Counted from the first letter of the whole stretch, positions 7,312 through 51,560 are shown. The stretch: DNA of 62,908 nt, filler included, from Reclinomonas americana ATCC 50394 (GCA_048213135.1; 9 parts of 8 records of this genome joined end to end with filler, not necessarily neighbours in it); one strand, 5' to 3'. The notes: generated by a model not told the origin, from the letters alone. Numbers and translations are program-made.

Positions 7312-10300
7312 TCATCGACCTGAGACTCTTTCTTCCTCCTCTTCCTCTTCGTCGCCCACGTCGGTCACTTCCTGTTGGCTGACGCCACCCACAGCATCAA
7401 GCGCGTTGGAGAAATCGGGCAAGACGCTGCCGATGATGCGTTCCACAAGCCCACGAGCGTTTCGACGCATCAGTTGGATCGCCCGGCCAGACACACGGGC
7501 GGTGCACGCAGAACCGAATGCCATGCAGCGAAGAAAAGTCACACAATCCGCTGTAGGTGTCACTAGATCTGCCTGCTCATCAAGAGGCACTTCTTCACCA
7601 GTCGACAGTGACCACACTCGAACTTCTCCGTGACCACTGACGCTCACGATGTACTGACCATCGGGAGTGACATCGACAGCCCCCACCCCGCCCGTGAGTC
7701 CCTCCAGTCGTAGCAGTTGCTCTCCACTCGCCAGTGACCACACTCGTACTGTATTGTCCCCACTCCCACTTACGACGTGCAGACCATCGGGAGTGACGGC
7801 GACAGACTCTACACTGCCTGTGTGTCCCTTCAGTCGGCGCACCCCCTCGCCGCTAGCCAGTGACCACACTCGCACTGAGTCGTCCAGACTACCGCTAACG
7901 ATGTGCTGACCATCAGGAGTGACGACGGCAGAGTTCACCCAGTAAGCATGTCCCCGCAGCAGCCGCACTTCTTGTCCACTCACCAATGACCACACGCGCA
8001 CCGTCCCGTCCCCAAAGCCACCGCCACTTACAATCTGCTGCCCATCAGGACTGACAACGACACACATAACACCACTCGTGTGACCTTCCACGGCGCAACT
8101 CTTCTCCACTCGCCAATGACCACACTCGCACTGTCTTGTCACTCCCTCCGCTCACAATGTATTGACCATTGGTAGTGACGGCGACACACGTTACACAATC
8201 ATTGTGCCCCTCAAATCGACGCACTTCTTCTCCACGATCCAAAGACCACACCAGAATAGACCCATTCTCACCACCACTCACAGCGAATTGACCAACTGGA
8301 GAAACAGTAAATGCGGAGGACTGTCCTGCCACCTGCCACAGTTCCTCGCCTGTTGACACAGACCACATCCTCACCGTCCCGTCATCACCGGCACTCACAG
8401 CATGCTGACAATCGTGGGTGAGCACAACTGAATGCACCAATCCGGTGTGCCCACCCAACCGACGTACTTCTTCATCACCTTTCACAGGCCACATTCGTAC
8501 TGTCATATCTCCACTCCCACTCACGACATACTGACTATCAGGAGTAACTGTAACTGAACGCAGTTGACCAGTGTGTCCCTCCAACCGTCGCACCTCTACG
8601 CCACTCGCCAGTGACCAAACCCGCACAGTCGAGTCCCCACTCCCGCTAACGACGTGCTGTCCATCGGGAGTGACGGTAACTGTCGACACTGCATCGGTGT
8701 GTACCTCGAACCGTTGCATTTCATCCCCATTCGCCAGTGACCACACTCGCACAGTCTTATCATCACTCCCACTAACAAGAAGCTGGCCATCCGGAGTGAC
8801 AGCGATGGAATTCACCCCACCTGTGTGGCCTTCCAGTCGGCGCACCTGCTCGCCACTTGCCACTGACCACACCCGTACAGTCGTGTCATCACTGCCACTC
8901 ACAATGTGCTGGCCATCGGGCGTAATTGCCACTGCATTCACCCAATCCGTGTGACCTTCCAGTCGCCGCACCTCCTCGCCACTTGCAAACGACCACATCC
9001 GTATAGTTTTGTCCTCACTGCCACTCACAATGTGCTGACCATCGGGTGTCACTGCCACTGCAGAAACCCGATTTGAGTGGCCTTCCAGTCGGCGCACCTC
9101 CTCACCACTTGCCAGCGACCACACCAGCACAGTCTCGTCAAGACTGCCACTCACAATGTGCTGGCCATCGGGTGTCACTGCCACTGCATACACCCAACCA
9201 GTGTGACCTTCCAGTCGCAGTTCCTCCTCTCCACTTGTCACACACCACACCCTTACAGTGCAGTCATCACTTCCACTAACAATGTGCTTACAGTCGGGAG
9301 TGACGGCGACAGCTCTCACCCAGTCAGTGTGCCCCGCCAACGGCTTCCTCGGCCACTGCACATCCGTCACATTCGCCCCCCTGAAATCCGCCTCCCTCGC
9401 ATACGCCATGCACACATTAACCTCTCGCATATCCGCCCCCCTCCACACCGTCCTGTGCATCACCGCATCCCTCAAATCCGCACCCCTCACTCGCACACCT
9501 GACAGGTCTCGTCCACTGAACGACGCTTGCGCCACACACAGCACCGTTGCTGCATTCGCGGCTGCCGTCACCAGTCGCTCCTCATCCATCTCTCGTGACA
9601 ACGCAATCACCTCCCACAATCTCGCTTGCAGTCGAGGAGACCGTCGAACCACCTCGGCCATCTGCTCCACCAACGATGGTCTGTCGTTCAGCAATCGCAC
9701 TGCCAGCACATGCTGCTGCACATCCAGCACCGTCATCTTCCTCCCCTCATCCCACGTCTCCCACGCAAACACATGCCGCGCTACACAGTGCTCCAGCAAC
9801 GACAGATGCACGAATCCCCACTGCGTCGTCCCATATCGTCGCACAATTGGACAGCACATTCGCACATGCTGGTTCTTGTTGCCGAGAAACTTGTCAAGTG
9901 GCCCCTCCTCCACTCGTCGCACGGCGAGTGGCGCACCACCAAAGTCATCCTCCTCTTCCTCTCCGCCATCACCTGACCGAGACTCCATCACAGACACACG
10001 CACCAAGTTCCTCTCATGCATCAACCGTGCCAGTCCCTCGCAGAATGCGAGACACGTTTCCTCACCCGGCACACGCTCCGCACCAAGACGCGTCTGCTTC
10101 TCCTGCTCCCTCACAATCCACTGTCGAATGAATCGATCAAACACATCGCACCGAGTTGGTCGCTGTACTCCACTTGCCACCAACTGCGGCAACACACGAG
10201 CAACAACTGAGAGCATGAACGGATTCGACACCAGTACATCCAGTCCATGTATACTCTTCAGTGCACGAATGTACTCGTCTGCAGTCGACCATCGCACTTC

Positions 10301-49700: not shown

Positions 49701-51560
49701 GCACTTCACTGTCATCATCATCATCACCGCCCACTTGTACCAGCCGCTCAAAGTACTCCTCAATCTGCTCCTTGTTGAACGGCGCAATATGTCGCTCCGT
49801 CAGCTGTTGCATGCACAACTGTCCTCGTGCATCAACCGGTGCAAAGAACCGTCGATACTGCGTTACTCCACCCAGTGCCGTCAGCGCGTAATCACCACGA
49901 CAAGTCACAATCACCTTCACATCGCGACACACATCCAGCTGGTTCTTGACAAACAGATTCACACCACGGTACAGCTCGTCGTATCCGTCAAGCAACAACA
50001 GCAGTGGTTCCTCCTTCAATCGTCTCACATCCGACTCCAGTCCCAACTCGGGAGAGAGTCGCTCGAGTGCCTCCTCCAACAGTCGCTCATCGGCATTGCG
50101 CAGTGCACCAAGAGGCACACGCACCGGAACTCGTTCACTCTCCCTAGTCTGCCACTGTCTCCATGCCCTCTCAACCAGCACCGACGTGGTGGTGGTCTTT
50201 CCCGCTCCGCTGTTGCCAAACAGCACCAGCACGCGCTGGGTGGTGTTGGCGTCGGAGAGGAAAGCATCCACCTCTATCAACAGATCTGTCATCTTGTTAC
50301 CCGATGATACGTCACGCTCACGTGAGCACAGCAGTGGCACATACACCTGCATGTCCTTGCGCACACTCTCGTCATGCAGGTAGAACGAGAGCTCGCGCAC
50401 AGCCAGTCGATGCAGACGCTCCTCGAATGTGTCTACAATGAGTCGAGAGTGACGCGCCTCATAAATACGAGTAGAGAATCGAGCTCGCTCATCAACCGTC
50501 AATCGCACTCGAGAGATGATGGAGAGAAAGAGACCGCCATCACCAAGGTGCTGCTGCACAGTGGCATCCGTCAGTTGCAGCTCATCGTGTTTCAGCTTGT
50601 TCCTGACACCGTGCAGCTCCTCCACCGCCTTGCGTTCATCGGCATCGGCAATCAGCAGCAGCTTGTGACCGTCATCCTGAATGAAGCCACCATACAACAT
50701 GATGGACGTGAGCGCCGTCGTGTCGAAACCGTCACACGGATGGTCAGATGAGGAGTCGGCGTCGAATGCATCGCGCCAGGCCAACAACACCGGCTGCTTC
50801 TCCTCAAACAACTTGACTCGAGAGGGATGGAGTGGAGCATGTCGTTCACGCCATGCCTTCACAGCCTTCGAATCCAAGCCCGCAGGCATGTAACTCGGCA
50901 CCCACGCCCGCACATCAAAGTCGGCATGATCGCGACTGAACTGGGCCAGAGCGCGTTGACATCGCAGACGCACGGCCTCCTCCACCACCTCAAAGGTCAT
51001 GTTGATGCGCTGCAAGTTGATCATGCTGTGTGCGTGCAAACGCAGTCAGCACAAACGCATGCGGAGTGGAAGAACAAGGAAGGGAGAAAGAGGTTGAAGT
51101 CAAGCAAAAACAAACCGAGCCACTCGCTCCGAGTTGCTGAGCGCAGACAAGAGAGTGAGTTGCATGTTTTGAACAAAGAATGCATCTGCACACAAACCTT
51201 CCACTCCCTCTGCTCGACTGCGGTACCAAGCCAAGTGTCAGACGGACGACGAGATGAGTGGATGAGTTGATGCCCAGAGTCTTCAGCTTTAACACATTCG
51301 CATCCTCCAAGTCGAATGCACTCGGCTTCTCCACCCCCACAATCTCCATCTCCCCATCTCCACTCTTCTCACGCAGCAAGCGTGTGGCCTCGCGCAGCAC
51401 GTCAGCAAGAGTGGACACAGCCGACATGCCCTCCACCACTACCGACAGCGACGAATCATGCACCGCACTCACACGCACAGAGAACTGCGAGTTGAGGACG
51501 GTGAGCACAGACAGAGAAGGAAGGAAAGAAAGTGAATGCACACAAACAACACACCAACAT
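46795..51560 (-). CDS. NLR-like STAND protein copy 3: Ubl - HEPN - NACHT - pentapeptide - 14xWD40
   Basis: Predicted exons 51560-51555 (ATG TTG), 51484-51198 (Ubl), 51136-51116 (21 nt) and 51025-46795; GT-AG and phase-consistent. HEPN motif RNKLKH at 50604-50587 preceded by FDTTALTSIML. Walker A GNSGAGKTT, Walker B LLLLLDGYDE, 14 WD40 repeats. Only the acidic tail is frameshifted (about 46842). Confidence 0.9.

Follow-up and report, generated by a model that had tools for sequence, protein, structure and literature searches.

Predicted NLR-like STAND genes of Reclinomonas americana with an exchangeable effector slot between a putative ubiquitin-like exon and a NACHT-pentapeptide-WD40 body

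We analysed a 62,908-base stretch of DNA from Reclinomonas americana ATCC 50394 (GCA_048213135.1), referred to as the window, of which 4,962 bases are N in 22 runs, and identified three paralogous genes predicted to encode NLR-like STAND proteins, in which one segment, the effector slot, holds a caspase-fold protease in one copy and a HEPN-like helical domain in the other two. The reading that we favour, with moderate confidence, is that these proteins consist of a ubiquitin-like (Ubl) domain, an effector (caspase or HEPN-like) in an exchangeable slot, a NACHT domain, a pentapeptide beta-helix and about 14 WD40 repeats, and act as a cell-death switch in defence or self/non-self recognition. 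The exchangeable-effector NLR-like family is supported at the level of predicted architecture, and from analogy we infer the immune or allorecognition function. The tripartite order of NLR-like proteins, i.e. N-terminal effector, central NOD and C-terminal repeats, was found in all three predicted polypeptides. Because of the short GT-AG introns of spliceosomal type and the scaffold gaps, the window is read as eukaryotic DNA in draft assembly. The three genes and their predicted exons are as follows.

7312-12175, minus strand: copy 1, NLR-like gene
12175-12170, 12110-11818, 11630-8045, minus strand: copy 1 model, 3 exons, 1294 amino acids to a premature stop
12170..12175, minus strand: copy 1, coding part of exon 1, ATG TCG, then GTGTGT donor
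19774-25003, plus strand: copy 2, NLR-like gene
19774-19779, 19845-20119, 20181-20281, 20376-20596, 20660-20775, 20846-20946, 21015-21209, 21279-25003, plus strand: copy 2 model, 8 exons, 1579 amino acids
19774..19779, plus strand: copy 2, coding part of exon 1, ATG TCG
46795-51560, minus strand: copy 3, NLR-like gene
51560-51555, 51484-51198, 51025-46795, minus strand: copy 3 model, 3 exons, 1507 amino acids
51555..51560, minus strand: copy 3, coding part of exon 1, ATG TTG

The long open frames 8045-11728 (minus strand), 21263-25003 (plus strand) and 46795-51045 (minus strand) encode clearly paralogous proteins, and the genes appear to be recent gene-sized duplicates of about 5.2-5.7 kb each with 82-84% DNA identity, the duplicated unit consisting of the gene plus 100-300 bases of flanking DNA. 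The copies span 45 kb of the window, copies 1 and 2 being arranged head to head and copy 3 lying another 21 kb on. Copies 1 and 3 are colinear along the whole gene (about 5.2 kb, 82% DNA identity by blastn), and residues 1-760 of copy 3, used as the tblastn query, matched copy 1 with 77.7% identity across residues 5-760. Against copy 2, the same query was matched only for residues 211-760 (88% identity), and blastn comparison of copy 2 with copy 3 gave two blocks, 19767-20103 with 51567-51226 (81%) and 21299-25177 with 50397-46497 (84%), between which there was no similarity.

For each copy the predicted exons form one open frame, and all 11 introns are of the GT..AG type with lengths of 59-187 nt. 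The first coding exon is only 6 nt long in every copy, an ATG plus one codon followed by the GTGTGT donor. The lengths of corresponding introns (59/65/70 and 187/172 nt) differ between copies by numbers that are not multiples of 3. The original prediction, made from the same DNA, had proposed three paralogues with a common body, and this is borne out, at a level well above chance, by tblastn, blastn, Pfam and the single-frame gene models; its assignment to NLR-like STAND proteins, in which effector, NACHT and repeats follow one another, agrees with the single open frames and the order of the Pfam domains.

The slot is the segment at which this similarity is interrupted. As had been proposed, the slot of copy 2 carries a sequence unrelated to that of copies 1 and 3, the blastn and tblastn similarity stopping at the slot limits. 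The 5' limit is the end of the second exon, at intron 2, which is of phase 2 in all copies, and the 3' limit is a conserved linker beginning RELSFYQHDES, located just after the last intron in copy 2 and inside the long exon in copies 1 and 3. When copies 1 and 3 are compared, the DNA identity is 94% over the first 100 bases (about 40 codons) of exon 3, 53-70% at 50925-50432, and back to 82-94% downstream. The synonymous divergence (dS, Nei-Gojobori method) between these two copies is 0.83 for the slot versus 0.34 for the adjoining NACHT part, a gap of about five standard errors by hand calculation from the Nei-Gojobori counts (76.8/153 versus 108.7/394 synonymous sites). From the higher dS and the lower identity of the slot, even the HEPN-like cassettes therefore appear to be older than the genes surrounding them. 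No relics or further copies of the Ubl, HEPN and caspase segments were detected by tblastn elsewhere in the window, and none of the three copies retains a remnant of the alternative effector. The slot has probably been exchanged by illegitimate or intronic recombination, i.e. exon shuffling; gene conversion would homogenise the scaffold and spare the slot, or else the cassettes would derive from older or other paralogues.

The slot of copy 2 is spread over five exons.

20181..21209, plus strand: copy 2 effector slot, predicted Peptidase C14 by Pfam and hhalign, in exons 20181-20281, 20376-20596, 20660-20775, 20846-20946 and 21015-21209
About 20525-20527 (His, SGHG) and about 20759-20761 (Cys, NCCRS), plus strand: copy 2 predicted caspase dyad by hhalign

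The Pfam family PF00656 (Peptidase_C14) matched the exon 20376-20596 of copy 2, and of no other copy, with 38.7-39.1 bits against a cut-off of 21.4, the match covering about positions 28-102 of the 233 profile positions; the other four exons gave no Pfam match when scanned singly. Each exon was then compared by hhalign with a reference alignment of 4 actinobacterial caspase domains. Exon 1 was placed on reference columns 1-27 (E 9.8e-4) and exon 2 on columns 67-83 with FFSGHG on the invariant His (E 8.7e-5, probability 60%), while exon 3 was placed on columns 124-132 with the second Cys of LMNCCRS on the invariant Cys (E 0.011, probability 4%), an alignment of only 9 columns that is weak when taken alone. 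Two results weigh against the favoured reading: exon 5 (21015-21209) was placed on columns 205-233 without significance (E 0.19), and exon 4 (20846-20946) found no sensible hhalign placement. Altogether 4 of the 5 exons are colinear on the reference with the dyad in place, exon 2 being the only one strong by itself. The C14 caspase fold proposed for this slot thus stands on a PF00656 match above cut-off and a dyad on invariant columns, and the insert is a predicted C14 caspase-fold domain with a His/Cys dyad. Homologues of the caspase exon were found neither in the protein database at E <= 0.01 nor, beyond at most one chance match, by sequence search of the PDB. NCBIfam gave one weak match to a 'caspase, EACC1-associated type' family (E 0.0018, 17.8 bits versus 140) and otherwise only pentapeptide and P-loop matches far below their cut-offs.

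In copies 1 and 3 the slot lies within the long exon and encodes about 213-220 amino acids, 58% identical between the two copies.

10985..11629, minus strand: copy 1 effector slot, predicted HEPN-like helical domain, RNELAH at about 11186-11203
50386..51024, minus strand: copy 3 effector slot, predicted HEPN-like helical domain, RNKLKH at about 50587-50604

Both copies carry the Rx4-6H motif of HEPN domains, and R, N, L and H of RNxLxH are invariant despite the low overall identity. Matches were obtained with Pfam HEPN_Swt1 (E 0.0091 for copy 1 and 0.01 for copy 3; 16.5-16.7 bits, below the cut-off of 27.5), with Pfam RiboL-PSP-HEPN for copy 1 (E 0.056, 13.8 bits, below the cut-off of 28.4) and, for copy 1 only, with the PADLOC models RTasHEPN (E 7.6e-4) and CARF_HEPN (E 1.8e-3). 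All these matches sit on the same helix, the one carrying RNELAH or RNKLKH, and in copy 1 this helix is hit by four different HEPN profiles from two libraries. As a reference for comparison, Swt1-type domains were taken from actinobacterial genomes, of which 26 out of 401 had a match; 20 loci were fetched, and 18 of these entered the alignment, without L083, an exact duplicate, and L094, which is cut by a contig end; the control scan with HEPN_Swt1 gave no match in three actinobacterial genomes or in 14 control genomes. By hhalign, the two-copy slot alignment matched the 18 Swt1-type HEPN domains with 81.5% probability (E 1.1e-5), the RNxLxH of the slot being aligned with their RNxWAH motif. 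The nearest neighbours in ESM Atlas, taken as a lead only, are cnidarian and mollusc clusters with scores of 0.92-0.94, in which HEPN_DZIP3 is found on 11-38% and HEPN_Swt1 on 20% of the members.

On the other side, no profile match in copies 1 and 3 reaches its curated HEPN threshold, the hhalign alignment is limited to the motif helix and the helix after it (43 of 113 template columns), so that the likeness is confined to about 40 residues, phmmer found 0 relatives of the slot among 1.84 billion representatives, and AlphaFold2 on the two-sequence slot alignment gave an unusable model (predicted local distance difference test, pLDDT, 37.3) in which mostly helices are predicted. A sequence search of the PDB with the slot, as single sequence or as alignment, or with the Ubl exon, gave no relative and at most one chance match each. 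These points leave room for the alternative that survives best, namely that copies 1 and 3 have in the slot, in place of an active HEPN RNase, some other helical module, e.g. a regulatory domain or a non-catalytic adaptor, or a TeTIR-like effector. A domain of 200-350 amino acids is stated to lie invariably directly upstream of NACHT in NACHT-WD40 proteins, and the TeTIR domain is described for TEP1/NWD1-type proteins (bioRxiv 10.64898/2026.09.21.753143). No TIR family was matched in the slot by Pfam at E <= 10, however, and the predicted helices, the retained motif and the agreement of the profiles argue for HEPN. We regard this alternative as unlikely, and the slot of copies 1 and 3 as probably a very divergent HEPN domain. 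Of the HEPN domain with RxxxxH that had been proposed for these two copies, the conserved motif and the convergence of several profiles on one helix hold good, and a match above threshold is missing.

The remainder of each protein is common to the three copies.

10334..10834, minus strand: copy 1, NACHT NTPase, PF05729 34.8 bits, cut-off 26.7
21461-21952, plus strand: copy 2, NACHT, PF05729 38.1 bits, cut-off 26.7
49744-50235, minus strand: copy 3, NACHT, PF05729 34.1 bits, cut-off 26.7
9428..9526, minus strand: copy 1, pentapeptide repeats, best Pfam stretch, PF00805 24.9 bits, cut-off 20.2
About 22757-22855, plus strand: copy 2, pentapeptide repeats by Pfam
About 48847-48951, minus strand: copy 3, pentapeptide repeats by Pfam
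7312..9346, minus strand: copy 1, WD40 array, 9 + 4 Pfam stretches, broken by a frameshift
About 22943-24697, plus strand: copy 2, WD40, 14 repeats, then C-terminal tail and stop
About 47005-48762, minus strand: copy 3, WD40 array, 13 Pfam stretches, then tail and stop
21279..25003, plus strand: copy 2, last exon, with NACHT, pentapeptide, WD40 and tail
46795..50385, minus strand: copy 3, rest of last exon, with NACHT, pentapeptide, WD40 and tail

The NACHT domains contain GNSGAGKTT and LLLDGYDEL, which we take to be the Walker A and Walker B motifs, respectively. Together with the PF05729 scores above cut-off, these motifs place the predicted proteins in the NACHT clade of STAND NTPases. The pentapeptide scores range over the copies from about 25 to 30 bits against the cut-off of 20.2. 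About 14 WD40 repeats are present per copy, each of 42 amino acids in strict register and much alike, a number that suffices for two propellers; as judged by eye from the repeat alignment, the variation is concentrated at repeat positions 3-5, 7-8, 23 and 25. The protein identity between copies is 89-90% for the NACHT-pentapeptide part, and the ratio of nonsynonymous to synonymous divergence (dN/dS, Nei-Gojobori) is 0.14-0.18 for all pairs in this part and 0.33-0.39 in WD40 (first nine repeats), indicating that the predicted NACHT domain is under purifying selection. The body of the original prediction, with 14 WD40 repeats and near identity between copies, is therefore kept in modified form: the paralogy and about 14 repeats of 42 amino acids were found, together with 9+4, 14 and 13 Pfam stretches, an array that is frameshifted in copy 1, and identities of 89-90% (NACHT-pentapeptide protein) and about 84% (DNA) in place of near identity.

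Three small stand-alone WD40 genes were also observed, at 12589-13968 (minus strand), 25206-26528 (plus strand) and 58657-59409 (minus strand), with repeats of the same type as those of the NLR-like genes (VAVTPDGQH.VSGS..TVRVWS). Of the 3 genes, 2 share the C-terminal tail CL.EMV.RCF..EEA.VV, one of these being immediately upstream of copy 1 and the other immediately downstream of copy 2; the third runs into an N run. These genes could be partners, decoys or repeat donors of the NLR-like genes.

From what is established for NACHT/STAND proteins, the following mechanism may be proposed. The WD40 surface would bind a ligand, upon which NACHT would exchange nucleotide and oligomerise; the N-terminal effectors would be crowded together, so that the protease or the HEPN RNase would become active as a dimer, and the active effector would stop or kill the cell in defence or self/non-self recognition. 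For the constant Ubl, a role as adaptor or regulator may be supposed, e.g. for homotypic contacts or turnover, which is a guess. Weighing against this proposal is that ligand, oligomerisation, enzymatic activity and the role in death or immunity are all predictions by analogy. In addition, comparison with copies 2 and 3 shows that 2 bp are deleted in copy 1 at about 8090/8091, which leads to a premature stop at 8045-8047, the WD40 repeats continuing in another frame (open reading frame, ORF, 7312-8151, four WD40 stretches); since the remainder of copy 1 is still under purifying selection, this frameshift may represent a very recent pseudogene or an assembly error.

These STAND switches might instead serve a non-immune role, such as developmental or stress cell death or other regulation, or belong to a decaying family without current function. 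Besides the frameshift and the analogy on which the immune function is based, this alternative may draw on the genomic context and on the defence-system models: outside the NLR-like genes, 55 ORFs of at least 150 amino acids and 90 ORFs of 90-149 amino acids carried a Pfam domain in 0 of 145 cases, the PADLOC models of Avs/bNACHT did not match the NACHT-pentapeptide parts, and only weak P-loop stretches were obtained there, with mad8 (E 2.2e-4 and 0.008) and PDC-S60/S68, at E values of 2e-4 to 0.03. Against it stand the purifying selection on NACHT in all pairs, the effectors of death type, the local copy number and effector turnover displayed by the cluster, and the conserved 42-residue WD40 units with localised variation, as in fungal NLRs under diversifying selection (PMC4986451). 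We consider a non-immune role or decay improbable, and the defence or self/non-self switch the better account.

The second exon is the part of the constant N-terminus for which a ubiquitin-like fold is predicted.

11818..12110, minus strand: copy 1, second exon, 293 nt, predicted Ubl beta-grasp and Gly/Ser linker
19845..20119, plus strand: copy 2, second exon, 275 nt, predicted Ubl
51198..51484, minus strand: copy 3, second exon, 287 nt, predicted Ubl

An AlphaFold2 model from the three-copy alignment has strands at 2-9 and 12-18, a helix at 26-41 and a strand at 77-81, i.e. the order beta-beta-alpha...beta. When compared by VIA-align with 48,161 chains, the top match was the UBL of TONSL (Z 5.6, root-mean-square deviation 2.7, 70 residues aligned), and about 40 of the 50 matches listed were Ubl-type as classed from their titles (ubiquitin, SUMO, NEDD8, UBL, UBX, FERM-F0, PB1-type). 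In ESM Atlas, neighbours carrying ubiquitin families score 0.87-0.89, which is again a lead only. The predicted domain ends in RLTLG or RVERG and lacks the di-glycine GG. Several results tell against this fold. The model is weak (pLDDT 60.5); the VIA-align Z values of 4-5.6 are in the range that the tool calls common, so that the support for a beta-grasp is only moderate; Foldseek with the model gave 0 matches at E <= 0.001; no Pfam family or PDB sequence was matched; and no relatives were found among longer database proteins at E <= 0.1. For each copy, the Pfam search including the ubiquitin clan was negative at E <= 10, a negative limited by the HMMER filters, which discard most weak matches. 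The dN/dS of the second exon is 0.56-0.62, and a value of about 0.6 indicates weak constraint. Judged from the fold prediction, a ubiquitin-like beta-grasp is the probable fold of the second exon; of the Ubl exon originally proposed, the exon shared by all copies and the Ubl-like fold prediction are retained, together with a weak model that has no sequence match.

Whether this exon is translated ahead of the effector depends on the gene models, and here the splicing is deduced from DNA rather than from transcripts, which tells against the full architecture. In copies 1 and 3 an ATG directly follows the acceptor of intron 2, so that a transcript without the Ubl exon could still encode HEPN-NACHT-WD40. 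The first caspase exon of copy 2 contains no ATG, and the whole caspase domain is therefore translatable only via the upstream exons. The second exons (293, 275 and 287 nt in copies 1, 2 and 3) have lengths that are a multiple of 3 apart and end in phase 2 in every copy, by which the donor stays in phase 2, and their variable sites fall 5/7/14 on the three codon positions for codons 1-58 and 10/10/11 for codons 59-85. That the models are partly wrong, the Ubl-like exon being a separate short transcript or an untranslated leader and copies 1 and 3 starting at the ATG of MINxQRINM, so that 'Ubl ahead of effector' would be an artefact for these two copies, is the least probable of the alternatives: it fits the ATG at the very start of exon 3, the weak constraint, codons 59-85 without third-position bias, the lack of sequence relatives and the junctions modelled from DNA, but leaves unexplained the open frame kept in 3 of 3 copies, the conserved phase, the coding-like pattern of codons 1-58, the caspase exons of copy 2 without their own start codon before the first beta-strand, the ATG-plus-donor micro-exon conserved in 3 of 3 copies and a predicted fold of recognisable domain type. 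The exon-intron structures with the Ubl exon joined to the effector are thus the predicted ones.

In the protein database, the best match of the body was a protein of 2207 amino acids (P0004; 28% identity), which likewise has the order NACHT-pentapeptide-WD40 and is, by guess, of fungal origin. The next matches (24-25% identity) were actinobacterial proteins with a putative TIR start followed by NACHT, pentapeptide and WD40, and one of them, used as query, gave 211 relatives of 41-46% identity. Such putative TIR-NACHT-pentapeptide-WD40 proteins of about 2000 amino acids are common in Streptomyces, Micromonospora, Actinomadura and allies. Search of metagenome contigs with the NACHT-pentapeptide alignment gave 276 pattern matches, with no relative among them.

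The architecture of copy 2 is known from bacteria. Metacaspase-NACHT-WD40 proteins are widely distributed in bacteria, the pentapeptide insertion being specific to cyanobacteria, and the cyanobacterial metacaspase-NACHT-pentapeptide-WD40 proteins have the same order as copy 2 (Asplund-Samuelsson et al. 2012, PMC3501461). The genes described here differ in being eukaryotic with 2-7 spliceosomal-type introns, in the extra N-terminal Ubl-like domain and in the HEPN-like domain that takes the place of the caspase in 2 of the 3 copies; the likeness is of domain order, the bacterial sequence identity found here being only about 24-25% (actinobacterial). For Chlamydomonas NACHT-WD40 proteins, a cyanobacterial origin has been proposed (PMC4773052). 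The bacterial bNACHT/Avs proteins of phage defence, in which the N-terminal effector varies, a STAND NTPase comes next and a sensor repeat forms the C-terminus, follow the same effector-STAND-repeat logic (bioRxiv 10.1101/2022.07.19.500537; PMC13581612).

Among eukaryotes, fungal NLRs combine N-terminal effectors combinatorially. Two NODs of the same genome with 80-85% identity have been documented to bear different N-terminal domains, which corresponds to the slot swap described here, and the WD repeats of fungal NLRs evolve in concert and under diversifying selection (Dyrka et al. 2014, PMC4986451). Fungal NLRs, including HET-E/NWD, share NACHT and 42-residue WD repeats of high internal conservation with the genes described here (PMC4986451). 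Cnidarian Dzip3-like HEPN-NACHT proteins represent the commonest non-LRR NACHT fusion in nine species, with 17-83 per anthozoan, and have HEPN N-terminal to NACHT, as in copies 1 and 3; they differ in their C-terminal repeats and have no Ubl (PMC8260672), and they were found by the Pfam DZIP3 HEPN model, while only weak matches to Swt1-type and other HEPN were obtained here. In two surveys of fungal NLRs searched by term, the words HEPN and caspase did not occur. Pfam matched no fungal effector domain here (HET, HeLo, Goodbye or others), so that the N-terminal HET domain of the HET-E/HNWD proteins was not found, and the swap described here, in contrast to the fungal ones, sits behind a constant first domain.

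Such a constant first domain is a feature of the Crinkler/CR proteins, the design of which was reportedly described by Zhang et al. in 2016. In CR proteins highly variable enzymatic modules, in many cases with a P-loop NTPase, come after a constant Ubl header, as proposed here for the Ubl-like exon and the slot, and the N-terminal region ends in a hot spot of recombination (PMC5289972, a review). The Crinkler Ubl has also been annotated on the N-termini of fungal NLRs (PMC9815663). CR proteins, however, are described as toxins or effectors and not as NACHT-WD40 receptors (PMC5289972), and the Ubl-like exon has no Pfam match at E <= 10, the Crinkler family PF20147 included, nor is a Crinkler motif of the LxLFLAK type readable in it.

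Two claims of novelty consequently had to be given up. A fixed N-terminal Ubl before an exchangeable effector had been put forward as not known from any described family, but it is just the design of the Crinkler/CR proteins (PMC5289972). An unprecedented design is likewise unsupported because each element, as well as the principle of exchange, is known: caspase-NACHT-pentapeptide-WD40 in cyanobacteria, HEPN-NACHT in cnidarians and near-identical NODs with different effectors in fungi, as described in the papers cited above. The combination of Ubl, HEPN or caspase, and NACHT-pentapeptide-WD40 was not found in open-access full texts, supplements excluded. What looks new is this combination of domains and a recent swap with both boundaries visible.

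If the genes are transcribed as predicted, they would represent an effector swap between NLR paralogues caught soon after the event, at a synonymous divergence of the body of about 0.35. Both recombination boundaries, one intron and one conserved linker, are still readable, and the exon-shuffling route to new NLR architectures would therefore become directly testable instead of being inferred only from phylogeny. A caspase-fold and a HEPN-like effector on one scaffold, together with a constant Ubl-like first domain that may serve as adaptor, regulator or degradation signal, would extend what is catalogued of NLR-like proteins in eukaryotes other than animals, plants and dikaryan fungi. The cyanobacterial and actinobacterial parallels of NACHT-pentapeptide-WD40 raise the question of a horizontal origin. 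It is conceivable, although we hold it only tentatively, that a eukaryote kept a bacterial-type caspase-NACHT-pentapeptide-WD40 protein, added introns and a Crinkler-like Ubl header, and swaps protease and RNase cassettes at an intron-bounded slot under gene conversion. Such proteins would connect, as a living intermediate, the STAND conflict systems of bacteria, Crinkler header-plus-toxin proteins and eukaryotic NLRs, and the Ubl would be a new kind of NLR signalling adaptor.

The regions 1-6900, 26600-46400 and 51600-62908 lie outside the NLR-like and WD40 genes, and no tRNA or Rfam family was found in the window. Strongly strand-skewed or tandemly repetitive stretches were noted, e.g. at 4044-4917, 44337-45327 and 53059-53735. 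The N runs are patterned: nine pairs of 44-N runs have 12 bases between the members, e.g. 19135-19178 and 19191-19234, and seven longer runs are of 269-967 N each. This pattern looks like a scaffolding or masking convention rather than biology.

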